Shown here in pieces: positions 2,368 through 37,988 of a stretch of DNA of 62,700 bases. Location: positions 1 through 62,700 of IMG/VR virus record IMGVR_UViG_3300048625_000103; one strand, 5' to 3'. Both the position numbers and the translations under genes were made by a program. Position 1 is the stretch's first letter. Every line of letters begins with the position of its first letter. The notes beneath the pieces are model-generated. The model saw only the letters and a program-made list of their open reading frames with translations, made no database searches and was not told the origin of the DNA. Source of the DNA: a virus (lineage: Duplodnaviria > Caudoviricetes).

Positions 2368-4194
2368 ATGACAACAGCAGCAACATCACTCTTAGGTCTC
2401 GCGCTTCCGGTAACGGGCGAGTTGAATGGCACTTGGGGCGATACGGTCAACAACTCCATCACATCCCTGCTGGACTCAGCGATTGCTGGTACAACCACAA
2501 TCAGTACCGACGGCGACGTCACACTGACGACCACAACACTGGCCGCCAACCAAGCTCGTGAAGCGATTCTGTTGTTCTCTGGCGCACGCACAGCACAGCG
2601 TACAGTTACCGCTCCTGCCCAATCCAAACTGTACACAGTCATCAACGCAACCACTGGCGGCTTCGCGGTCAAGTTGGTAGGTGCAGGTCCAACAACAGGT
2701 TTGACTATCCCTGCTGGCGCAAGCGCTTTAGTGGCGTGGAACGGCTCGGACTTCGTTGAGATCGGCGCGACTACGATTAACAGCCTGACCGTCAGCGGGA
2801 ACTTGTCTGTTGGTGGAACCACCCTGCTGACCGGCGTAGCAACTTTGACTGCAAACCCCGTGCTTAATGGCGGCACAGCCAACGGTGTAGCCTATCTCAA
2901 CGGCTCCAAAGTCCTGACCACCGGGTCTACGCTGACGTTTGATGGGACTAACTTTGGGGTAGGAATCTCCCCTGTGTCTTCTTACAGAGCGGCTGTTAAC
3001 GGAGATTATTGGCAGGGCAACGGCGCTGGCGCAGTAATCGGCACCCTCATAAACAATGGGGGCTGGTATGAGCTTGCAGGAGCTATCAACGTCACTGGCC
3101 TGCAATTCGCACACGCCACTATCCAGCGCTGGATGTTGGGCGGCTCCGAACAAATGCGCCTAACCAGCACAGGTCTGGGTATTGGGACGAGTTCGCCGCA
3201 ACGCAAATTGCACGTTAACGCAACGCCCGGAGCTACTTACGGCGATGTTGCACGCTTTGAATCAAACGGCGCTGCTGGCCCTGTCACTTTGAGTTTTGGT
3301 GATTCTGGCACTTCTTCTGCACTACCGACAATTGGTGGCAATGGTAACGATTTGGTGTTTGGCACTGGCGCTGCTACTCAAATGCGCCTTACCCTCGCAG
3401 GCAACCTAGGCTTGGGTGTTACTCCTAGTGCTTGGAATGCGTACAAGCATATTGATGTTGGCGCATTTAATGGCATTTATGGTGACAATAATTCTGCTTT
3501 TAATCGTGAAATTGGGTTGTACACAAACGCCTATTACAGCAGTGGGTGGAAATACGCAGTTACCGGAAGCGCCGCAAACTGGTTTGTAGCCTATAACGGC
3601 ACATACGCTTGGAACACCGCCCCCTCCGGCACAGCAGGAAACGCCATCACTTTCACTCAGGCTATGACGCTTGATGCTAGTGGGAATTTGTTGGCGGGGG
3701 ACACTTCTAATGTGTTTGACAGCACTGTACGACTTTATGCAAAATCGTCAGGCTTTGCTGCATTTTTCCGCACTACAGCTTCATCAGGTTACTCAGCAGC
3801 GGCTTTCAGTAGGGACGGCAACGATGGAAACGTTTGCCAATTTTATCGTGTTTATAACGGTTCTGCGGTAGGTTCAATTTCGGTTACAGCGTCGGCTACA
3901 GCATACAACACAAGCTCCGATTACCGCCTCAAAGACATCACAGGCCCAATCACAACCTCTGGCGCTTACATTGACAGCTTGAACCCCGTTGAAGGCACAT
4001 GGAAAGCTGATGGCTCTACCTTTGTTGGTTTAATTGCGCACGAAGCACAAGAAGCCTCACGCACTCAGGTAGCTACAGGCGTCAAAGATGGTGCAGAAAT
4101 GCAAGGCATGGATTACTCTAGTGCTGAAATCATTGCCAACCTGATTGCTGAAATCCAATCACTCCGTAAACGCCTCGCAGCAGCAGGTATCTAA
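2368..4194 (+). CDS. Tail fibre with C-terminal intramolecular chaperone (peptidase S74-type) domain
   Basis: MRLTSTGLGIGT and MTLDASGNLL fibre repeats; TSSDYRLKD autocleavage motif followed by GLIAHE and a terminal coiled coil. Confidence 0.85.
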   Translation: MTTAATSLLGLALPVTGELNGTWGDTVNNSITSLLDSAIAGTTTISTDGDVTLTTTTLAANQAREAILLFSGARTAQRTVTAPAQSKLYTVINATTGGFAVKLVGAGPTTGLTIPAGASALVAWNGSDFVEIGATTINSLTVSGNLSVGGTTLLTGVATLTANPVLNGGTANGVAYLNGSKVLTTGSTLTFDGTNFGVGISPVSSYRAAVNGDYWQGNGAGAVIGTLINNGGWYELAGAINVTGLQFAHATIQRWMLGGSEQMRLTSTGLGIGTSSPQRKLHVNATPGATYGDVARFESNGAAGPVTLSFGDSGTSSALPTIGGNGNDLVFGTGAATQMRLTLAGNLGLGVTPSAWNAYKHIDVGAFNGIYGDNNSAFNREIGLYTNAYYSSGWKYAVTGSAANWFVAYNGTYAWNTAPSGTAGNAITFTQAMTLDASGNLLAGDTSNVFDSTVRLYAKSSGFAAFFRTTASSGYSAAAFSRDGNDGNVCQFYRVYNGSAVGSISVTASATAYNTSSDYRLKDITGPITTSGAYIDSLNPVEGTWKADGSTFVGLIAHEAQEASRTQVATGVKDGAEMQGMDYSSAEIIANLIAEIQSLRKRLAAAGI

Positions 4195-21978: not shown

Positions 21979-22181
21979 GCGTTCTTCTCACGTAATTTAG
22001 CTTCGACCAATGTTGCATATGTGTGAAACCTTGGAATTGCGGCACGGCTTTCAAGCCAAAGATTTGACTTTTCTCTATCTGTCAGCCCCACCCATTCACG
22101 TTTGTAAATTTGTTCTTGTGGGATAACTTGAACAACAAGTTCCCCGTCTTCCATCCAGCTTTTCGTTACCTGAGTTGTCAT
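21975..22181 (-). CDS. Modular hypothetical protein (WVGLTD...EAKLREKN)
   Basis: Shares motifs with 22178-22489. Confidence 0.6.
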   Translation of the reverse strand: MTTQVTKSWMEDGELVVQVIPQEQIYKREWVGLTDREKSNLWLESRAAIPRFHTYATLVEAKLREKNA

Positions 22182-22627: not shown

Positions 22628-23443
22628 TTATTCCTTAATGCCGTGGGCGGCTTCGATTGCTCGTACAACTTTTACAAAGTCATCAATCTTGCACATATCG
22701 CAATCTTCAAGGCCGTTATCACGCCCCCACCATTTACGGATTTCAGCATCCGTAAGTGGCTTGCGTTGTTGTGGCGTTAGTCCTCTTATTACTTCAAGAC
22801 ATTCATTCCAGCCAGTCCGATAATCGGGACTTTCGCTGTCATCGGTAATGGAATCGGGCAATGCCATATGGTGTCGTTTGGTGTAGAGCAACGTACCAAT
22901 AGGCATAGGTTCGCCACGCCATTGGATAGTCTTTGTGTGTCTGATTTGGCCGAATCCAGCATATTCATTTGTACCGATTACTTCACCCACAGGCTCACCC
23001 TGCTCTTTCTGTGCTGCGGGTGGGGTGGAGAACAATCGGCACAAGTCAGAACGCCACCAAAACGCGCCCCTCTTTGTCGGGTGCTTTTGCTCAAACCAAA
23101 CGCCATCCCAATCGCCAGCGCCATAGAGGAAGTTCAGCATTTGCAGTTGCTCGCCTGTCCACGCCACAGGATCACCCTGCTCTTGCTTGGCTAGTGCAAC
23201 GTCGTACAAAGGAACAACCTGCCCAAGCGGTGTAAATGAAGCGCTGTTTTTATCTGTGCTCACTGCGCCATTGGACGGGTCGTACCATGCCAACGGTTTG
23301 CCATGCTCTTGTTGTGCCAAGGATTTTTCTAAAACCTCAATCGCATCGTCAACTTTGTTCAGATCAAACGATTTTTCATACGATGATGTGTAGGTGCAGC
23401 TATTCAACGCATCAAGCACCAGATTCATTTCTTCTTTGGTCAT
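22628..23443 (-). CDS. Modular multi-segment hypothetical protein
   Basis: Three QE(Q/H)G.P linkers, KPLTD and AIEAAHGIKE end. Confidence 0.65.
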   Translation of the reverse strand: MTKEEMNLVLDALNSCTYTSSYEKSFDLNKVDDAIEVLEKSLAQQEHGKPLAWYDPSNGAVSTDKNSASFTPLGQVVPLYDVALAKQEQGDPVAWTGEQLQMLNFLYGAGDWDGVWFEQKHPTKRGAFWWRSDLCRLFSTPPAAQKEQGEPVGEVIGTNEYAGFGQIRHTKTIQWRGEPMPIGTLLYTKRHHMALPDSITDDSESPDYRTGWNECLEVIRGLTPQQRKPLTDAEIRKWWGRDNGLEDCDMCKIDDFVKVVRAIEAAHGIKE

Positions 23444-23453
23444 GTTGGATTCC

Positions 23454-23645
23454 TTAGTCGTACCGTTTGCGGCTTTCTATCACCATGGCATCTGCCAAGT
23501 CATAGGCTTCTTTTGGAGATGATCCGCCGAAGGCAAACACTGTTGCCATCAAGTCTTGCGCGGTCAGATCATCCACTGGCATAGGCTTTACCTTTGGCTT
23601 TAGAAGGTCGATACCTTCAGCGACTTGTGGTTTTTTTGTTGCCAT
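23454..23645 (-). CDS. Hypothetical protein
   Basis: AYDLADAM motif; coupled within the operon. Confidence 0.5.
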   Translation of the reverse strand: MATKKPQVAEGIDLLKPKVKPMPVDDLTAQDLMATVFAFGGSSPKEAYDLADAMVIESRKRYD

Positions 23646-26853: not shown

Positions 26854-27804
26854 TTAGTCCCAGCTTGATGAAGAGTCGCTAGAAGAGCTTCCGCTATCCC
26901 AGCTTGATGAGCTGCTTGAGCTGCTGCTCCATGAACTGGAGCTAGAGCTTGGTGTGTCCCATGAGCTTGACTTGCTTGAGCTGCTGTCGTCCCAGCTTGA
27001 GCTGCGCGATGGAGCGGGTGTATCCCAGCTTGAATCACGAGATGGAGCAGGAACCTCACGGATCACTTCACGCTCGACGACGCGAGTTGTGTCATGGTGA
27101 TGATGGCTCAGCATGTCATTGATCAATATGGCATTCACCAAATCGCTTGATCCTGAGCTGTGATGATGAATCACTGTTTGCGTTGGAGCTGGCGCATAGC
27201 TAGGTGTTGATTGAACGTAGCTTGGTGCTGCTGGAGCCGCGGCAGGTGCTGGCGTTGAGACTGGCTTTGTTTGCTCTTTCTTGGCTGCCGCCTTTTCCTC
27301 TAACTCGCGCTTGAAATCAGCTGCGAATTTTTCACGCAAGGCTCGACCTTCGGCGATGGCTTCTTCTTTTTGCTTGGCTTCTTTTTCACGTCGTGTTTTA
27401 CCAACGTGATACCACCAGACCAAACCAAGGACACCAAAGATCAGAGCCCACTTCAACCATGCGTAGTCATGTTCGTGCACAGGTTCAATCTTGGCTGTGT
27501 TTGGAACAATGGCTTGTTGCAGGTTCTGAACATTGCCGGTACTGGCAAACTTCAGATCAGGGTCTAAGCCGCGCGCCTTATCCAGTGCGAACTGAGCCTT
27601 CTCTTGATTGCCCAAGCCTGCCTGAGCCTGCGACATTGCGTAGTACGCCTTGGCCGACTGTGGGTGGTTCTTGATGATCTCGATCAGGCCCTGCTCTGCG
27701 GCACGGTATTGCTTCTGCTCAATGAGAGATTCGATCTGTTGAAATGACGCTTCCGCAAATGCCGATAAGCAAATGAACGAAAGCAAGAGAAACAGTTTTT
27801 TCAT
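26854..27804 (-). CDS. Signal-peptide TPR protein with TM and Ser-rich SSSWD tail
   Basis: N-terminal signal peptide, TPR-like helices (HPQSAKAYYAMSQA), TM, then low-complexity His/Ser repeats. Confidence 0.75.
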   Translation of the reverse strand: MKKLFLLLSFICLSAFAEASFQQIESLIEQKQYRAAEQGLIEIIKNHPQSAKAYYAMSQAQAGLGNQEKAQFALDKARGLDPDLKFASTGNVQNLQQAIVPNTAKIEPVHEHDYAWLKWALIFGVLGLVWWYHVGKTRREKEAKQKEEAIAEGRALREKFAADFKRELEEKAAAKKEQTKPVSTPAPAAAPAAPSYVQSTPSYAPAPTQTVIHHHSSGSSDLVNAILINDMLSHHHHDTTRVVEREVIREVPAPSRDSSWDTPAPSRSSSWDDSSSSKSSSWDTPSSSSSSWSSSSSSSSSWDSGSSSSDSSSSWD

Positions 27805-28676
27805 GTTGATTCCTTAGTTGATAAATACTGCTGATGCGTTGTGCAAAAAGCAGACACTTGGCAGAAAGATTCGCAGCGTGTGCGTTCTCCCGGCCGGTGC
27901 TCGATGAAATACCCTTTCTCTGGAAGCATGAGGTCTGCTTCTTCGCGGGTATCGTGTACTGATTTAGCGCGTTTGCCACCTTCTTTCATGACGGCAAACT
28001 TTTCGGGTTTGGCCCACATCTCGTCTTCCGTGCAAGGTGCGATCTCGCCATTTGTTTCAACTTCAAAGAAGGCTTCGGTGTGCATGTGAATGCGGTCACG
28101 GATGTACTGTTCGCGATCTTCAAATGTCCACAGTGGGATATCGATCACAACGATAGGTGCTTGTGGGTACGTATCCTTTTGCTTGGCTTCACGGCTGGAC
28201 CAGTCTCGGATGATGGCCACGATCTGGAGCTTCTTAACCTTGATGCCTTTGGTCTTCTCCACCAGAAACGCATAGCCATTGAGCTGGTTGTGCCAGTCTT
28301 GCTTTTCGTTAACTATGGACCACGCGCTGGTAGTTTTATAGTCTGAAAGAATGATTCCATCTTCTTCAATTTCTTGAAGATCAATAGCTCCAGAAATTGT
28401 CATGCCGTCAACTTCAGCAAACACACGTTCTTCAACGATGTGGTTGTCTCCTTTGCCGTGCTCAAGAATATTATGGATTGCAGTGCCAAATAATGACCAC
28501 ACCATTGATGCCGCATCTTCTTCCAAGTCATCCCAGTGCTTACGTTTCAATTGAACAATTCTTGGGCTATTTAAAAGCTCCGTCATTGAAAGGTTTGACT
28601 TACCTTTTGAATACGTGGGCCTAGCCAACACATTCATTACCGTTTCAGGCAAAGAATATTTATTAGTTAATTTCAT
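27801..28676 (-). CDS. PD-(D/E)XK exonuclease (Cas4/RecB-like)
   Basis: GTAIH, SGAIDL, DYKTT, QLNGY motifs and C-terminal Cys cluster; start reassigned to MKLTNK. Confidence 0.85.
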   Translation of the reverse strand: MKLTNKYSLPETVMNVLARPTYSKGKSNLSMTELLNSPRIVQLKRKHWDDLEEDAASMVWSLFGTAIHNILEHGKGDNHIVEERVFAEVDGMTISGAIDLQEIEEDGIILSDYKTTSAWSIVNEKQDWHNQLNGYAFLVEKTKGIKVKKLQIVAIIRDWSSREAKQKDTYPQAPIVVIDIPLWTFEDREQYIRDRIHMHTEAFFEVETNGEIAPCTEDEMWAKPEKFAVMKEGGKRAKSVHDTREEADLMLPEKGYFIEHRPGERTRCESFCQVSAFCTTHQQYLSTKEST

Positions 28677-29391
28677 TTTTACGCTCCAGTTTTTGTTTCG
28701 CAAGATAAGCAAGCCTTGATTGCCTCATCTTTTCTTTTGCTTCTTCTGTGTACTTGTATCCAGTTTTTGACTTTGCTAGTTTTTCTCGCATCGCATCTGA
28801 CTTTGGCTTTCCTTTGCTTGCCTCTGACAGTTTTTTCTTATGCTCTTCTGTTAACTTGACTCCTGTTTTTGATGCGATCATCTTGGCCATTGCATCTGGA
28901 TTAACGCTCACATGTTTCGCCATCATTGCTGCATGAACATGAGGTAATGCTGGCTTACCTTTGTTTAGTGCTGGCTTGCCAAATCTTGGATGCTTTTCTC
29001 CTTTAAGAGCTTCTGATATGCGAGACCTCCACTCTTGGCTCTTAGCTTGTTCACGAACTCTTTCTGTGTGTTTTGAAAGCTGATCTGGTGGCATTTTTCT
29101 TCCTGCTGTGCCCTTTCCTCCTTCGGTGATATTTGCCAGTTCGCATCCCATATCCCTGAAGCAGGCAATCAAAAGTCGCTCATGGTCAAGCGCCTCTTGT
29201 TCTGTTTTCCATCTTGCACAGATCTCTACCGTGCGGCCATGCTTCTTCTCAATGTTGAGCCAGAACTTATTCCTGCCGTGCAGGGTGCTTGCCCGGCTTG
29301 CAATTCCCTTGCCGACATAGAAAACTGATCCATCGCTGGCTTTGCGGTGGATGTATGTGTAAAACATATCAGTCAGTTTCATAGTCGTCAT
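28663..29391 (-). mobile_element. Free-standing GIY-YIG-like homing endonuclease with NUMOD3-type repeats
   Basis: YTYIH...FYVGKG...R, LANITEGG and repeated TEEHKKKLS / SDAMREKLA / TEEAKEKMR. Confidence 0.8.
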
Positions 29392-29501: not shown

Positions 29502-30198
29502 TCATCGTTCATTTGGAAATGCCAGTTCAATGGTGATGCGAACTTTTACTGGGATCGCATTCAATGGAGAAATGTCGATCGCAGATTGAGCCGCGGCTTT
29601 GGTTGAGTAAATGTGGAAGCCAAGGTTGTCATCTGATTTCAAGAGACAGTTCTTGCGGTGCTCAATGGCCCATACAACTCGCTTGTGTTTCTTAACTGTT
29701 TTCATTCGTCGTTCTCGATTGGTTCGCAAACAAGATTTGGAAACATCTCGTCGATCTGTCTCACCATCAAAAAGCCATCAGAGACACCCGGAATTTCAAA
29801 CATGCCGAAATACGCATCGAGCCATCTGCACTTCTTCTTTCCTGCTGGGAAGTCTGCATAGAACTCTGCCGAATCGAAACCGTTGTTCTCTGCCCATTTT
29901 TGACATTGATAGATATTCATGCTTCGATGGCCAACAGCTCGTTGATCTTTGCGTCAATCTCCATGACGCGCTTAGAGAAGTCTGCTTGCGCTTTTTCTCG
30001 TTGAGCCTTCAATGCTGCAATCTGGCCGGGACGAGGATCGAAGTTGTCTGGCACTTCAACATCGAAGATGTGCTCCATAACTAACGCTTCATATTCAGAC
30101 AAATATTCCACATTCCCAGACGAAGAAAGCCGGTACTTTGGGGATTTTTCCCATGGGTAGTTGATCTGTACGATGTAACCTTTGATCGTGATTTTCAT
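29502..30198 (-). CDS. Three small coupled hypothetical genes (29917-30198, 29702-29920, 29502-29705)
   Basis: ATGA-type overlaps; first gene has AGGAG RBS below a leftward promoter. Confidence 0.55.
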
Positions 30199-30227
30199 GT
30201 TCACTCCTGTTATGTGTTGGGGACTCG

Positions 30228-30256
30228 AATATAACAGGTTGTTCCCATACCAACAA
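30228..30256 (-). promoter_or_regulatory. Leftward sigma70-like promoter of the recombination operon
   Basis: TTGTTG-17 nt-TATATT with extended -10 TG. Confidence 0.5.
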
Positions 30257-30303
30257 GATATATCGTAAAATGTTTTTGATGGAAAAAGAAAGGTCGATAG
30301 CTT

Positions 30304-30594
30304 ATGTCTAAATACGCAAGACGAGTGGATGAGAATCAAGGTGACATCGTTAAAGCGCTGCGTGCTTGTGGTGCCACGGTGCGTGTGATCTCGCAGGGAG
30401 ACGGCATTCCTGATCTGTTGGTGGGGTATCAGGGGTACACAATTCTGATTGAAGTTAAGGATGGCCAGAAGCCTCCATCGGCGCGCAAGTTGACTGAAGC
30501 TGAGCAGGATTTCTTTGACAAGTGGACTGGCGGCATGTTGGTTATCGTCAATAGCGTGGAAGAGGCGCTTGAAACTCTGAAAAAGTGCTGTTAA
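30304..30594 (+). CDS. VRR-NUC-like PD-(D/E)XK endonuclease
   Basis: GIPDLLVG...IEVK...LTEAEQDF motifs. Confidence 0.8.
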   Translation: MSKYARRVDENQGDIVKALRACGATVRVISQGDGIPDLLVGYQGYTILIEVKDGQKPPSARKLTEAEQDFFDKWTGGMLVIVNSVEEALETLKKCC

Positions 30595-30597
30595 TAT
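30569..30597 (+). promoter_or_regulatory. Sigma70-like promoter of candidate sRNA
   Basis: TTGAAA-17 nt-TAATAT with extended -10 TG. Confidence 0.55.
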
Positions 30598-30603
30598 CGG
30601 GGC

Positions 30604-30681
30604 GCGGTTTGTTCATGGGCCGCTATGTTCCTTAGTTGGTTGGATAGGTGGGCTACCTGACGGGTGGCTCACCTTTTCTTT
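30604..30681 (+). ncRNA. Candidate anti-RBS small regulatory RNA
   Basis: 5' hairpin, single-stranded UUCCUUAGUUGGUUGGA seed and 3' terminator; complementary to RBSs at 32604-32622, 27810-27820 and 23450-23458. Confidence 0.55.
30646..30681 (+). terminator. Intrinsic terminator
   Basis: AGGTGGGCTACC/GGTGGCTCACCT stem followed by TTTCTTT. Confidence 0.7.
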
Positions 30682-30685
30682 CAAC

Positions 30686-31822
30686 ATGAATGAGTCTTGG
30701 GGCAATCCTGCCCAGCTACAGTACAGGGCTCATTCATGTTGGTGGTCAAGGACGAAAGACAAAGGTACACGCTGGGTGCAGAGCAATGTCTTGGCGACCA
30801 TCGAGAACACAGACCCAAACTGCTATTGGCTTACTACTTACTTGGAGACCGCACTATTACGTGCTGTATGGTATCCAACAACCGTAGCCACGCAGAGCTG
30901 GCACATCAAGCAAATCATCAAAGGCTTTCTGGAGAAAACAGGTGATACTTCTCTCATTGATTTTAAGTTGCACGATTTTGGCGCTCGTGGTGCATCTAGC
31001 TTGGAGTCAGCCGCAATTGGTGGTGCCGCTCACCTCGTTAACTTCATGGGTACTGATACTGTTAGCGGCTTGCTCTACGCTCGTAAGTTTTATGATGCTG
31101 GTATTGCTGGCTTTTCCATCCCCGCTGCTGAGCACAGCACCATAACCAGCTGGGGTCGTGCAGGTGAAGTAGACGCCTATCGCAACATGCTCAAGCAGTT
31201 TGGCCAAGCGGGAAAGATCTTTGCCGTGGTGTCCGACAGTTACGACATCTTCAATGCAGCTGCAAAGCTGTGGGGTGAAGAGCTGAAGGATGAGGTGATT
31301 GCAAGCGGTGCGACATTGGTTATCCGTCCCGACAGTGGCGACCCCGTGGTGATCAACAGGCAGTTGATTGATATCCTTGGCCAGAAGTTTGGCTATACGG
31401 TCAACAGCAAGGGCTTTAAGGTTCTCAACCATGTCCGCATGATCCAAGGTGATGGCGTCAATGAGCTGTCTATCCGTTCCATCCTCGGCGCTTTCATGGC
31501 CGCAGGGTGGAGTGCAGACAACATCGCTTTCGGCATGGGTGGTGCACTGCTGCAACAGCTTGATCGTGATACCCAACGCTTTGCCATGAAGTGCTCGTCC
31601 GCTCAGATCAATGGTGAGTGGGTGCCAGTGCAAAAAGACCCGGTGACAGATTCCGGCAAGAAGTCCAAGGCTGGCCGCGTAACTTTGTACAAGAACCATG
31701 AAGGTGAGTTCTTTTCTGGAGTGGAAGATTGGCCAAATCCTGAGCTAAAAACTGTTTACATGAACGGCGTGATGTTCAATCAAATCACGTTTGAGCAGGT
31801 AAGGAAAAACAGCAACAAATGA
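30686..31822 (+). CDS. nadV: Nicotinamide phosphoribosyltransferase (NAMPT/NadV), apparently lacking the N-terminal ~100 aa
   Basis: LHDFGARG, SIPAAEHS, VSDSYD, IRPDSGD, IQGDG, FGMGGALLQ and KDPVTD..KKSK motifs present; the N-terminal DSYK motif is absent; ATG has no SD. Confidence 0.85.
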   Translation: MNESWGNPAQLQYRAHSCWWSRTKDKGTRWVQSNVLATIENTDPNCYWLTTYLETALLRAVWYPTTVATQSWHIKQIIKGFLEKTGDTSLIDFKLHDFGARGASSLESAAIGGAAHLVNFMGTDTVSGLLYARKFYDAGIAGFSIPAAEHSTITSWGRAGEVDAYRNMLKQFGQAGKIFAVVSDSYDIFNAAAKLWGEELKDEVIASGATLVIRPDSGDPVVINRQLIDILGQKFGYTVNSKGFKVLNHVRMIQGDGVNELSIRSILGAFMAAGWSADNIAFGMGGALLQQLDRDTQRFAMKCSSAQINGEWVPVQKDPVTDSGKKSKAGRVTLYKNHEGEFFSGVEDWPNPELKTVYMNGVMFNQITFEQVRKNSNK

Positions 31823-31847
31823 AAAGGGGGCTACGGCCCTCTTTTTT
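31822..31847 (+). terminator. Intrinsic terminator
   Basis: AAAAGGGGGC-TACG-GCCCTCTTTTTT. Confidence 0.8.
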
Positions 31848-31848
31848 A

Positions 31849-31876
31849 TTGCGCGCCGGTTCAGGATATGTATAAT
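31849..31876 (+). promoter_or_regulatory. Sigma70-like promoter
   Basis: TTGCGC-16 nt-TATAAT. Confidence 0.6.
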
Positions 31877-31883
31877 CCAAACC

Positions 31884-32010
31884 GTTGCTGTGAAGGGCGA
31901 CAGGATAGATAGGCCGATTACACATGCGTTCCGCCTTATTTAATGACCGAGTATGCAGAGTCATTACGTAAGGCCTTCACCGGAATGCAGTTGTAATCGG
32001 CTTTTTTGTT
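31884..32010 (+). ncRNA. Structured leader: small hairpin plus long bulged hairpin ending in a U-tract
   Basis: Stems aggccgattaca/tgtaatcggctt, tgcgttccg/cggaatgca, cctta/taagg and taatgac/gtcatta; loop GTGAAGG is complementary to bulge CCTTCAC. Confidence 0.6.
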
Positions 32011-32012
32011 TC

Positions 32013-32151
32013 TGTGTGTTTAATGATGGTGAATGCGTAGGCTGATACGCAACTCTGCTTGGGCCGCTACACATTCCGTGTAGCGCGTGACCTATCCCAA
32101 GGTGAGGAACCAAGCTGGGAATCAGCGCCAGCCATCATCATTAAACACATA
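32013..32151 (+). ncRNA. Multi-way junction RNA with kissing loops
   Basis: 17-19 bp closing stem; hairpins tgcgta/tacgca and gctgg/ccagc carry complementary GCTGA(T) and (A)TCAGC loops. Confidence 0.65.
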
Positions 32152-32505
32152 CCGCCCTCCGCAGCTTCCGTACTCCGCACGATAGCAAGCACCTGCATGG
32201 GTGGCGCGGAAGGAAACACCGTCCCAACAAATCGTAATTGGCCCCCTTTTAGTCGAGCCGGGGGGATGCTGCAAATTATGCGAGGCGGCAAGGAAAATGG
32301 GTAAAGCACGTAAGACGTGAGGGGTAAGACAGAGGTGTCAGGGCGTACCTTAAAGCGCCACCCAGATGGAAAGAGCATACGGCAGAAGATCGCGTATTTT
32401 TGTGATCCAACCGAACTTGGTCGAAGGCAGCAGCTTTTGATGGAGAAGCTACTAAGAACCCTTGTAAACAACACGGGGTCATCTGGTGGCGGCTCGACCC
32501 ATGGC
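32152..32505 (+). ncRNA. Large multi-stem structured region
   Basis: About ten nested stems, including cgccacccagatg/catctggtggcg and atgggt/acccat; no credible ORF. Confidence 0.5.
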
Positions 32506-32626
32506 GAATCAAAATCCAATTGCTTTTCACTATTGCACTTAATTGTCGATAGTTATATTTATGTGTAGCGATGTGTAGATATGTGCTTATTGGTGTATTA
32601 TTCGTCCACCAACTAAGGAGTAACAC

Positions 32627-32941
32627 ATGAAACAGTATTTGAAATTCTTGGAATCTGCCGGAGACTTTTCGGTTCCTTTTGACAAGACGGCACAGCAGGT
32701 TCTTGAAGAGATTGCACTGGTAGAGCTTAGTGATCCATTGACCGTTGGAGAGGCCATGAAGATGCTTCATATCGCATCCCCTGCAACCATCCACCGAAAG
32801 CTCACTGACCTTCTTGCTTTTGGTTACATCAACTTTTTCTACAAGGGTAAGAACCGTCGTACAAAGTATCTCGAGCTGACGCCGCGCGGAATTGCGTATT
32901 TCAATACGATGGAACGTTTTATGTTGAAGGTGGCCAAATGA
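32627..32941 (+). CDS. Winged helix-turn-helix (MarR-like) regulator
   Basis: SPATIHRKLTDLLAFGYI...NRRTKYLELT motif; AAGGAG RBS. Confidence 0.75.
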   Translation: MKQYLKFLESAGDFSVPFDKTAQQVLEEIALVELSDPLTVGEAMKMLHIASPATIHRKLTDLLAFGYINFFYKGKNRRTKYLELTPRGIAYFNTMERFMLKVAK

Positions 32942-33886: not shown

Positions 33887-34014
33887 CAGACCGTGAATTA
33901 TTTTTGAAGGCGCTAAACAACGCCATCGCTTGGCAAAACAGATGTGTTGAGCTATACGAATTGCTTGAGATTTTTTGCATGGACGCAGAAGCCGCCCATG
34001 ACATCAGGGAGTAA
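33883..34014 (+). CDS. 43-aa protein, paralogue of 22493-22624 (not in ORF track)
   Basis: MTDRELFLKALNNAIAWQNRCVELYELLEIFCMDAEAAHDIRE. Confidence 0.7.
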   Translation: MTDRELFLKALNNAIAWQNRCVELYELLEIFCMDAEAAHDIRE

Positions 34015-34017
34015 GAC

Positions 34018-34389
34018 ATGAGTGTAGGACGTTATTTGCGAGGCGAAGACCGCCACGTTGGAACTGCAAGGGTTTCTAAAATAAAACAACAAAACACAAA
34101 AGATATTTATCCAATGGATACGCCGCTACCTTGTGATGTGAAAGTTGGTCATGTGACTATTCGCAAAGGTGTCGCACTTCGCACATTGGTAATGCGGATG
34201 CAGGTGCTTTATGACATGGCACAACAACGCCCGTCACGAAGTGACATAAAGCCGCTGACGGATGAGGAAATGTATCTGGCAATTCGTCCGCTATACAAGA
34301 CGGACGCCTTGGCAAATGCCGCACTTTCTTTGAGTAAAGATGAGTATCGAGCAATCGAAGCCGCCACGACATTAAGGATTAAGACATGA
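34018..34389 (+). CDS. Modular hypothetical protein (KPLTDEE...RAIEAA)
   Basis: Shares modules with 22628-23443 and 37050-37754. Confidence 0.55.
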   Translation: MSVGRYLRGEDRHVGTARVSKIKQQNTKDIYPMDTPLPCDVKVGHVTIRKGVALRTLVMRMQVLYDMAQQRPSRSDIKPLTDEEMYLAIRPLYKTDALANAALSLSKDEYRAIEAATTLRIKT

Positions 34390-36293
34390 AGCAAAAAAAG
34401 CCAGTGCAAATGCACCCAATCTTGCGCGCGCAGATTCGTCAAAAGTGGGAATCAGAATCCATCAATGCACTGATCCATGCGCTCACAGGAAACAACAAAG
34501 ACAAGCTGTTGGCCTACGGTTCAATCATGATGTTTGTTGCCAGTGCTTGTGCCGCTTATACAGGCATCAGTGAAGACAGCATCAAGTTCAGAGTGATCCG
34601 TGGAGCCATTAATGCTCTTGATGATTTGAAAGAGCGGCCGTTAATAACATCGGTTGATCGCGGATCTATTTACTCTGGGTTGATTGCATCTCAAGAGCTG
34701 ATCAAAGGTTCGCCAGTTGAGGTTGTCAACGATGCAGCCAACATGTACAAGCTCATGGAGCAGCAGCTTGGGATGACCGCATCATGAGCATTGAGATTGA
34801 TTCGACAGGTGCCGCGGCCGTGGACCAAGACTATTTCTGGAAAGAGATTGAGAGCTGTCCACGAGGGGTGAAGGTCCAACTTCTTAGCTCGGGTGGAGTG
34901 GCCATGTACGGCCAATACAACGGCAAAGACAAGTTTTACACACACTGGGCACCACTGCCAAAAGTAAAAAACAAAGGGGATAAAAAATGATGAGAGAACT
35001 TATGAATCGATTAGCTGGCGTCTTTCGTTTGCCTAGCGCAGACATGATGGCCGTTAAAGAACTTGATGAAGCAAAGCGTTCGCTGTTGCAGATGCAATCG
35101 GCACAGGACTATGCAAAGCGAATGTGCGAGTATCACCAAGATAGATGCAAGCGTTTGAGCGCATACCTTGTTAAAGAGCAGCAGTCATGACAGCAACGTG
35201 GGCGCTTGTTTACATGCTGTGGACTGGTGGTTGGACCCCTCAGTACGCGGTACCTTTTTCATCTCGTGCGGAGTGCATGCGCAACATTCCAAGCAAAGAA
35301 AAAGTGAACGAGAAATACATCTGCGTACCAATTTCAAAGGATTGAAATCATGATTGAGATAATGGAAGACCTGTGCGGCTTTGCTGTTGTTTGCTATTTG
35401 TTGGCGGTGTACTTCAGATGAACGACGAACTCACGTTTCACTTATTCCTTATGGGCACATGTCTTGTTGCTCTTGGGATCATCGTCATTCCAGTGATGGC
35501 TGCAATTGCAATCAAGGCGGCAGATCGTGATTGAGTTTCACAAAATAGCCAATCCAAAACCATTGGTTTCGATTGATCAACATGGCGAGGTTCAAATCTT
35601 TTGGGATGCAGTTGAAGAGTTGGCCAAAGAGTACAAGCCACTTTGTCACAACGAAACAAACACGGCATGGGCGTATGTCTTGATGAAACTGAAAAATGAA
35701 CATTGACTTAACTTGGAAAATCAAATGACAAAAACAGAAATGACAACACTCTTGCGCAGCGTGGGAGTTAACGAGAACACGATCACCGCGATGGAAAACG
35801 CTTTTGAGATCGGTGTTGAGCAAGGGAGATCTGAGTTTGTGGAAGTTGAAGGCCGCTTCTATTCAGATTCAGGATTTCATACTTATTACGAACGTCAACG
35901 AGGTGAGGAATGACAAACATTAATGCCTTTCATCCTGATTTTGTGAAGACGCACATGCCTCAGTTCATGAGTGACATCAAGACCAACTCACGTCAAGCGG
36001 GGGCCGGTGCAACGCTTTCAAAGCACGTCACAAAGAAGCGTGAGACAACCCCATCGCACGGAACGGTTTACGGAATGTCAAAGGTCACTCGCGAGTCCAG
36101 CAACCTAACGCCCAACCAACTTCATGAGTTCCCAAAGACCAAGAAGGTGCAGAAGGGGTGGCAGCGCACCAAGGAACGAGAGATGACAATGGAAGAGATC
36201 AAAGAAGATCTGTCGGCCATGCAGCGAGCAAAGATGGCATCAAAAGAATTTCACACGTTAACAAAACCAGTTGCATCAAAGGAAAAGAAATGA
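34386..36293 (+). CDS. Run of small hypothetical genes (34386-34787, 34784-34990, 34987-35190, about 35725-35913, 35910-36293 and shorter ones)
   Basis: Same strand, overlapping stop/start codons; no confident family assignment. Confidence 0.5.
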
Positions 36294-37049: not shown

Positions 37050-37754
37050 ATGAGTAAAGAAGCAATGAAGCAGGCGCTTGAGGCGTTGACATTTTCACAA
37101 AGCGATTCAATAGCGGTAGAGGAATTGATTGACGATGCAATTATTGCCCTAGAAGAAGCACTAGCCAAGCAAGAGCAGGGTGAGCCTGTTTGGTCACTTG
37201 AAGATTGTGTGCGCACTTTAAAAACCCTGAACTACATAGAAGGAATTGCTGTAAAAGGCGAAGGTCGTCAAATGCGAGAGGATGAGTCGCTTGAGCAATT
37301 CATCCTTGGGTATGTAAAACGATTGGAAGCAGCATTTGCAAAGCAAGAGCAGGGTGAGCCAGCACCTGTGCAGAAGCCCGTTTGCCAAAAATGTGGCGGA
37401 ACAGGCAAAGTCGAAGAAGGCGGCGTTTATCCATCTGGGGATTTAGCGTATTTGCCCTGTGAATGCGCCACCACCTCACCCGCAGCACAACACAAGCCGC
37501 TGACGGATAAGACGGAAGGAAGAAGTGATCTAGAAATTGTCATTCAGACCGAAGACGTTGCGGCATTACTGATGCTTGAGATTTACCAACGAGAGTTAGG
37601 CGGCATAGCAAACCCTTTCAGGGACTCCGAGAACCCGCGAGCAAAACATTGCTGGCGCCTTGCTTGTCGCCTTCAAGAGATGCTGACAAACACCGACCCG
37701 ATGAACGCTGTCGCAGCAGTGGACGACGAAACCGCCCACGGCATTAAGGACTAA
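37050..37754 (+). CDS. Modular multi-segment protein with Zn-finger-like insert
   Basis: EAMKQALEAL start, two KQEQGEP linkers, CxxCGG...CxC, KPLTD, AHGIKD end. Confidence 0.65.
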   Translation: MSKEAMKQALEALTFSQSDSIAVEELIDDAIIALEEALAKQEQGEPVWSLEDCVRTLKTLNYIEGIAVKGEGRQMREDESLEQFILGYVKRLEAAFAKQEQGEPAPVQKPVCQKCGGTGKVEEGGVYPSGDLAYLPCECATTSPAAQHKPLTDKTEGRSDLEIVIQTEDVAALLMLEIYQRELGGIANPFRDSENPRAKHCWRLACRLQEMLTNTDPMNAVAAVDDETAHGIKD

Positions 37755-37757
37755 GAC

Positions 37758-37988
37758 ATGACAGATGAGCAATACGAAGAGCTAAGTTGCCCGCAGCCTT
37801 CATTCGTGGTTCGATCTTTGCGCGACAACCCAGACTACATAAAATGCCCGCGCTGCTGGAACTATACGCACGAAGGGTTGCATAACCATGACGGCCTATG
37901 TGATAGATGCTGCACTGTATTAATTGAAGCATGGCCGGATCATGAAAGTGTTCCACACATCAAAAAAAGGAGAGAGGCTAATGGCTAA
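37758..37988 (+). CDS. Small Zn-finger protein
   Basis: KCPRCW...LCDRC, resembling the FPG/IleRS-type zinc finger. Confidence 0.55.
   Translation: MTDEQYEELSCPQPSFVVRSLRDNPDYIKCPRCWNYTHEGLHNHDGLCDRCCTVLIEAWPDHESVPHIKKRREANG

Follow-up and report, generated by a model that had tools for sequence, protein, structure and literature searches.

Few phage-encoded riboregulators are known outside model temperate phages. The OOP RNA of lambda and the sar RNA of P22, about 70–80 nt in size, are true cis-antisense RNAs, transcribed opposite their targets and perfectly complementary to them, and the c4 RNA of P1 and P7 is excised from the transcript that also carries its target and serves to control an antirepressor of a temperate phage. 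In bacteria, small RNAs (sRNAs) such as CpxQ, DapZ, and RsaE/RoxS carry their seed just 5' of the Rho-independent terminator of an mRNA; those derived from 3' untranslated regions (3' UTRs) sometimes have an internal promoter within the upstream coding sequence, and the CU-rich anti-Shine-Dalgarno (anti-SD) sRNAs pair a C/U-rich seed with the SD regions of several mRNAs. These RNAs are host-encoded and chaperone-dependent, and their ends have been mapped experimentally. A lambda-type nut site consists of boxA followed by a short, non-terminator boxB hairpin and works with an N-type protein. Passages of one published account (PMC12197685) describe OOP and sar as short phage RNAs with their own promoter and terminator that pair with phage mRNA, and c4 as a small, imperfect antisense RNA that binds around the ribosome-binding site (RBS) of a phage mRNA and blocks its translation, with a specificity that differs between related phages. 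We describe here a candidate for such a regulator in the IMG/VR virus record IMGVR_UViG_3300048625_000103 (Duplodnaviria; Caudoviricetes), whose whole stretch of 62,700 nucleotides was analyzed and is referred to as the window. Our preferred reading, to which we assign a probability of roughly 45%, is that positions 30595–30684, together with a promoter-like site that begins at 30569, may constitute a conserved anti-RBS/anti-leader riboregulator, produced either by a promoter of its own or as the 3' end of a nuclease mRNA.

Among the known systems, the element would by analogy work most like the c4 RNA, that is, as a partial, RBS-directed antisense RNA with lineage-specific targets. As analyzed in silico, its complement covers both the SD sequence and the AUG and varies by lineage. 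Unlike those of c4, its candidate targets lie on other transcripts, the best-tracked one on the divergent transcript, and no integrase or repressor was found among the 74 window open reading frames (ORFs) scanned. It differs from OOP and sar in that it overlaps no conserved minus-strand gene but only the 3' end of the nuclease gene, on the same strand, and in that its complementarity to candidate targets elsewhere is only partial. The CU-rich seed just ahead of a terminator and the promoter-like site in the upstream gene are reminiscent of the 3' UTR-derived and CU-rich anti-SD sRNAs of bacteria, whereas this element is phage-encoded, comes from uncultured freshwater phages, and is known from sequence alone. 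The CU-rich tract of L002 and L021 also looks boxA-like by eye; however, the hairpin that follows it carries a U tract and is a terminator, in contrast to boxB of a nut site. On comparative evidence only, the element may be regarded as a credible addition to the phage antisense riboregulators, with a likely conserved target that differs from those proposed at the outset.

An initial annotation of this DNA had proposed a trans-acting sRNA composed of a promoter-like TTGAAA-17-TAATAT site, a 5' hairpin, a CU-rich seed, and a strong plus-strand terminator; all of these features are indeed present (Table 1). The terminator stem comprises 13 pairs, seven of them G-C, and is followed by the tail TTTCTTTCAA. 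An 80-nt plus-strand RNA folds at −33.6 kcal/mol (z −3.88), with only 1/200 shuffles equally good. The minus strand of the element folds at only −18.8 kcal/mol because two G-U pairs of the terminator turn into A-C mismatches, and it is through these two pairs, read from the sequence, that the terminator is specific to the plus strand. Across five trial 5' ends, the seed had a mean unpaired probability of 0.57–0.75. The −10 hexamer of the promoter-like site overlaps the stop codon of the nuclease gene (30592–30594). This promoter-like match alone is no evidence, because the same scan finds fewer such sites between 26000 and 36000 (4) than in shuffled sequence (11.0 ± 3.5). The Rfam 15 covariance models gave no match at the gathering score in the whole window; over 30200–32700 they returned only chance-level miRNA-type hairpin matches (E of at least 0.34), and in 15 related loci nothing but three tRNAs. 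ARAGORN found no tRNA or tmRNA in the window, and an exact 27-mer of the element had no match in viral contigs.

Comparison with related phages supports the unit as a real, conserved element of the plus strand. Relatives were gathered by nuclease and exonuclease searches and are contigs of uncultured, mostly freshwater phages from IMG/VR and metagenomes. The exonuclease search yielded 69 loci, with the nuclease present in 38. The stretch past the nuclease stop was recovered in 38 distinct copies, all of which have the same layout, and the nuclease proteins are 54–99% identical. A rule-based terminator was found in 37/38 copies, the L003 row having been cut at an earlier T run. CAT followed within 3–16 nt by a CU-rich tract was detected by a script rule in 32/38 copies, and in L100 too by eye; CAT is missing in L070, L071, L073, L089, and L099. 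Outside these features, the spacer sequence is barely alignable among the copies. The plus strand folds better than the minus strand in 24 of 37 relatives (means −21.7 vs −17.9). At the same offset as in the window, a promoter-like site scores at least 8/12 in 21 of the 38 copies, compared with 2.2–4.4% of random 54-nt windows, and at least 9/12 in 12 copies, compared with 0.2–0.6%, although the copies are kin and hence these counts are not independent trials. On the minus strand, an SD and an ATG open ORFs of 6–66 aa; because these lengths and the frames (three among close relatives) vary, the minus strand is not a conserved coding gene. Furthermore, relatives without the 96-aa nuclease have a RusA-like resolvase as their first rightward gene (PHROG 34, E = 2.5e-23 and 1.7e-25; Pfam RusA 4.4e-14 in L108). 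A similar module of hairpin, CU-rich tract, terminator, and next promoter follows at the RusA loci L075, L076, L085, and L096, which speaks for the module being retained in its own right.

Aligned at CAT, the plus strand of the element resembles, in the manner of a direct repeat, the region that comprises the start codon, the SD, and the leader of the first gene in the early-left operon. Because the leader is transcribed leftward and the element rightward, their RNAs would be complementary to each other. Element and leader match in 32 of 42 alignment columns in L007. Lineage-specific words are common to both in group B (CATGTnnTCTCCTGT) and in L063 (TGATAGA); L072 has the common word TTCTCC.TTGGTTA, with element and leader about 1 kb apart, and L087 has CATAGTTyTCCTA, with the two about 1.5 kb apart. 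In permutation tests, the cognate sum was reached by 5/120 permutations for five representatives (first-rank cognates not counted) and by 398/20000 for 14 clusters with automatically assigned leaders only, in which 4/14 cognates ranked first. When hand-added loci were included, it was reached by 38/20000 for 16 clusters (5/16 cognates first) and by 26/20000 for 18 clusters that comprised two RusA loci (5/18 first). A coding stretch put in place of the element served as a control, and here 12648/20000 permutations reached the sum. L066, L068, L090, and L091 were left out as having no assignable leader. Genome-wide, the cognate leader ranked 3rd by similarity and 2nd/93 by cofold energy in G001, 1st after the self-match and 4th/104 in G002, and outside the top 8 and 25th/103 in G003. 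Among the transition differences on representatives, 15 were compatible with G-U pairing in the element-RNA:leader-mRNA orientation vs 7 that were not, a lean that is only suggestive of RNA pairing.

Within the window itself, the complementarity is weakly beyond chance. The longest exact complements to RBS regions are 12 nt (gene 32627), 11 nt (gene 26854–27804), and 9 nt (gene 22628–23443), which confirms the matches to three genes that had been claimed. The sequence ACCAACTAAGGA occurs exactly at 30629–30640 (−) and at 32608–32619 (+), the latter 7 nt ahead of the ATG at 32627, and with one mismatch at 27811–27822 (−); the extended duplex of 30623–30650 with 32598–32630 reaches −26.7 kcal/mol. 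With up to two mismatches allowed, the 12-mer has 8 matches against 3.64 ± 1.89 expected, and 5/100 shuffles reach 8. With the TAAGGA core fixed and the flanks random, at least one of 109 RBS regions would be complementary over 12 nt or more with a probability of 0.013, and over 11 nt or more with a probability of 0.048. When 110 RBS regions were ranked by cofold energies, which allow for internal structure, two genes starting with ATGAAC came 1st and 2nd and the three proposed targets 3rd, 4th, and 5th. For such ranking, RNAduplex scans without intramolecular structure were too permissive, and an ungapped G-U-aware score over-rewarded wobble pairs and was replaced by gapped scoring and cofold free-energy differences (ddG). 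The targets named in the initial annotation are thus among the top-ranked RBS regions by an independent energy ranking, but in the relatives the element tracks the first early-left leader instead.

From the sequence features, the strand specificity, the conservation, and the partial co-variation observed here, we infer transcription, pairing in vivo, and a regulatory outcome along the following lines. A plus-strand RNA of about 80 nt would either be initiated at the internal promoter-like site or form the 3' end of the nuclease mRNA, and would consist of the 5' hairpin, a largely unpaired CU-rich anti-SD tract preceded by CAU, and the Rho-independent terminator. The CU tract would be an antisense image of a phage leader with its RBS and AUG, so that the RNA could base-pair at the translation-initiation regions of early phage mRNAs, making these mRNAs less stable or less well translated. 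For most relatives, the predicted target is the leader ahead of the first gene in the divergent early-left (Erf/exonuclease) operon; for the window, the best matches are to gene 32627, which heads the rightward operon, and to two leftward genes, at 27804 and 23443. Such pairing may cross-regulate the two divergent early units. A wider and decidedly more tentative proposal is that a family of uncultured, apparently virulent freshwater phages carries an ~80-nt anti-leader sRNA, a diverged antisense copy of the early-left 5' leader that co-evolves with it, sits at the 3' end of the resolvase gene of either type, and provides each lineage with a private post-transcriptional switch between its divergent early units; in the window, its targets would have shifted to the first rightward gene and downstream leftward genes. 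If the riboregulator is real, it would amount to an sRNA that extends across a whole family of uncultured freshwater phages, can be defined by sequence, and comes with naturally occurring compensatory changes in RNA and target leader, which would make its mechanism directly testable; it would also be a case of post-transcriptional cross-talk between divergent early operons in a phage without a repressor. If the stretch is merely a terminator with an RBS-like relic, the finding is an ordinary one.

Several observations weigh against a regulatory RNA. The "TA" of the −10 hexamer comes from the nuclease stop codon, and relatives with a TGA stop have weaker −35 boxes. No transcript was seen: the contigs of RNA run X5, which are blind to an 80-nt RNA, are near-identical to neighboring genes, and none covers 30471–31004. 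In several relatives, the CU tract forms the 3' arm of the first hairpin and is hence less accessible, and MAFFT/RNAalifold on 13 copies was uninformative on covariation, with just 5 terminator pairs recovered. About half of the clusters carry no cognate signal, and the window's own cognate leader ranks 13/16 and 12/14 by similarity and 17/110 by ddG. The G-U bias is not significant by itself. The leaders of L058, L072, L087, L088, and L100 were chosen after alternative candidates had been seen, and the 14-cluster test is therefore the unbiased one, with P about 0.02 as against about 0.002 with hand-added loci. Out of 48 shuffles of the 5' 43 nt, 11 reached the best energy and 10 the top-5 mean, although this control is conservative because shuffling destroys the hairpin. 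The initial interpretation of the unit as a riboregulator stands as regards a plus-strand element that is conserved in 38 relatives and has an RBS-like complement, but not as regards its pairing energies, which shuffles match. In addition, 9/22 real AAGGA RBSs of the phage share 11-mers or longer words with another RBS (2/22 for at least 12-mers), so the 12-mer is ordinary if the element is merely RBS-like. At many gene junctions the phage re-uses RBS cassettes that closely resemble one another (..A(C/T)TAAGGAnTAAGACATGA..), and a merely RBS-like antisense sequence would therefore yield the observed matches. These last points are shared by the main rival explanation, a plain 3' end, in which the intrinsic terminator and stabilizing stem belong to a monocistronic nuclease gene and the RBS-like complement derives from an RBS cassette, as a leftover or a copy at a recombination boundary, and engages in no RNA pairing. 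It accounts for the window, where the terminator is unambiguous, the hybridization energies do not exceed those of shuffles, and no cognate-leader signal is found; moreover, the stretch to the right of the element is a variable cargo island (truncated nadV here, three tRNAs in L002), so that the terminator marks a module boundary. Across the relatives, a neutral relic should decay, yet CAT and the CU tract are kept in 32/38 copies amid an unalignable spacer and survive the resolvase swap to RusA. A relic also fails to account for the fixed offset of the promoter-like site and for a resemblance to the early-left leader that is specific to each lineage. We therefore consider a plain 3' end unlikely, though a serious contender.

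The initial annotation itself had envisaged an independent sRNA directed at exactly the RBSs of 32627, 26854–27804, and 22628–23443 and, through its hairpin loop, at the ATGAAC genes, possibly standing in for a CI-type repressor. In this exact form the model appears improbable, even though its targets have the exact complements and energy ranks given above, the 12-mer is uncommon with the core fixed, and the RBS of the gene that follows the exonuclease, which in the window is the TPR gene, ranks 2/103 by cofold energy in relative G003 and shows a 10-mer match with the loop region in L002; this RBS, itself SD-rich, falls within the conserved 3' end of the exonuclease gene. The 32627 protein has a homolog only in L002 (59% identity), where the 12-nt pairing is reduced, by eye, to about 5 + 5 bp, and the gene is absent from 5/5 further relatives' records that keep the element. 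The covariation of seed and target that had been suggested as a check is hinted at for the early-left leader, at 398/20000 permutations, with about half of the clusters and the window showing no such signal; for gene 32627, the pairing is not kept in L002. Shuffles equal the energies, and the three RBSs resemble one another, hence their matches are not independent. Four genes do start with ATGAAC as claimed, all of them minus-strand ORFs (starts 43465, 43746, 44707, and 44960), but the 6-nt match of the loop GUUCAU is too short to carry much weight, ATGAAC occurring 50 times on both strands vs about 31 expected. The replacement of a CI-type repressor found no support: no integrase or CI-like protein was detected among the 74 ORFs scanned with PHROGs, and there is thus no sign of lysogeny to regulate. 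Two less likely readings place the function elsewhere. Element and early-left leader could be direct-repeat sites for a single phage DNA-binding protein, as operator or roadblock, that co-vary with the specificity of that protein; the two sites share DNA orientation and lineage-specific similarity, and the G-U-direction test (15 vs 7) is not decisive. What is kept in all lineages, however, is the anti-SD and CAT, features that belong to an RBS rather than to a typical operator, there is no palindrome, plus-strand folding is favored, and no candidate protein was identified, which leaves such a site very improbable. Least probable of all is that the minus strand holds a genuine translation start, be it of a micro-ORF or of a leader peptide, opposite the 3' end of the nuclease gene. 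An SD and an ATG at good spacing do occur in most relatives, but the reading frames are inconstant as described, the SD–ATG spacing is 12 nt in the window, no minus-strand promoter is evident downstream by eye, the ATG is missing in five relatives, and the minus strand folds worse. Two further candidates were rejected. An action of the CU tract on the RBS of the nuclease gene itself, as autoregulation, is at odds with several relatives that have no SD at the resolvase start and look leaderless by eye. A plus-strand micro-ORF from CATG would be just 6 aa long in the window and lacks its ATG in L007 and L008.

Table 1. Coordinates of the candidate element, the adjoining genes and signals, and the proposed target sites in the window (SD, Shine-Dalgarno; ORF, open reading frame)
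Feature	Position	Strand	Remarks
Promoter-like site TTGAAA-17-TAATAT	30569..30597	+	Consensus scan 9/12, TG before −10
5' hairpin, 7 bp, loop GUUCAU, conserved CAU at 30614–30616	30604..30623	+	
CU-rich "seed" UCCUUAGUUGGU, anti-SD	30629..30640	+	
Intrinsic terminator: 13-bp stem-loop 30646–30674 and T-rich tail	30646..30684	+	
Small nuclease gene, Holliday-junction-resolvase-like, 96 aa	30304..30594	+	ORF; candidate element begins within its 3' end
TIR1: start codon, SD, and leader of the first early-left gene (29917–30198, 93 aa)	30196..30227	−	
Putative early-left promoter TTGTTG-17-TATATT	30228..30256	−	By eye only
SD region of 104-aa gene 32627–32941 (possible HTH protein)	32608..32619	+	12-nt complement of seed
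SD region of TPR-like gene 26854–27804	27810..27820	−	11-nt complement of seed
SD region of gene 22628–23443	23450..23458	−	9-nt complement of seed

The virus record, which is identical with the window, is complete at 62.7 kb, with a completeness estimate of 99%. The candidate element sits between the stop codon of the 96-aa ORF and an ORF that starts at 30686. The nuclease matches the profiles PHROG 93 (endonuclease, 4.9e-8) and PHROG 5702 (Holliday junction resolvase, 3.2e-5), with Pfam Hjc at a sub-threshold 0.069 only. The genes to its left, comprising the 93-aa gene, a GIY-YIG/NUMOD3 homing endonuclease, a PD-(D/E)XK exonuclease, the TPR-like gene, and an Erf-like annealing protein, run leftward, so the nuclease is the first rightward gene at a divergent early junction. 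The putative early-left promoter is absent from the list of the consensus promoter scan, its −35 matching only 3/6, and group B relatives have, by eye, TTGACA-17-TATATT at its position. For the product of gene 32627, Pfam HTH/LexA matches are sub-threshold only (0.04–0.2), and TPR_19 in the product of 26854–27804 (E = 2.4e-4) falls below the Pfam cut-off. The homing endonuclease gene (28663–29391, −) separates the first early-left gene from the exonuclease; the closest relative, L002, has no such gene, and the two adjoin there. A RusA-like resolvase occupies the position of the nuclease in L075, L076, L079, L085, L096, and L108, a non-homologous replacement at a fixed genomic slot.

The ORF that follows the element (30686–31822) is a 5'-truncated nicotinamide phosphoribosyltransferase gene (nadV) with its frame intact. 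Its product aligns to residues 106–458 of the 463-aa ACP17 enzyme at 59% identity, with homology from window position 30761, and no N-terminal NAMPT domain was found anywhere in the 62.7-kb record, on which ground a group I intron or split-gene reading was rejected. The nominal first ~20 codons of this ORF fall inside a non-coding hairpin, and the ATG at 30686 has no preceding SD. That hairpin (30678–30745) is long and very stable (−35 kcal/mol, z −6.2) and directly adjoins the terminator tail. Counterparts stand at the same place in many relatives, with a variable middle and conserved outer stems (..ACGCATGGGGATTG .. CCCCAGCCGTGTTGG), and match no Rfam family. Where the window has the truncated nadV, L002 carries three tRNA genes (2624–3042), and in L059 and L060 a tRNA-like stretch is seen by eye immediately past the terminator.

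Other recurrent non-coding sequences were encountered. A motif of ~30 nt, GAAGCCGCCCAyGrCATTAAGGAnTAAGACATGA, is common to several gene junctions of the window (22150–22180, 34000–34020, 34370–34390, 37740–37760, and others); it encodes a shared C-terminus, the stop, and the RBS of the gene that follows, and possibly represents a recombination boundary. In L003–L006, L024, and L029, a strong plus-strand promoter and a structured non-coding stretch lie about 60–250 nt past the element terminator; this stretch shows compensatory changes (CTAAGG/CCTTAG, ACAAGA/TCTTGT, and GTGAAG/CTTCAC) and has no Rfam match. Finally, about 800 nt of the window (31823–32626) contain no convincing gene. They include an sRNA-like unit (−58.5 kcal/mol, z −6.7), made up of a TATAAT box, a long stem that closes it, and a terminator and conserved in L008, L092, L089, and L100, and the stretch 32164–32506 is 84% identical to L071. 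The notable parts are 31878–32016 and 32168–32221, and a 54-nt block within the region has 80–96% identity in many relatives and is up to about 550x deep in run X14 contigs.

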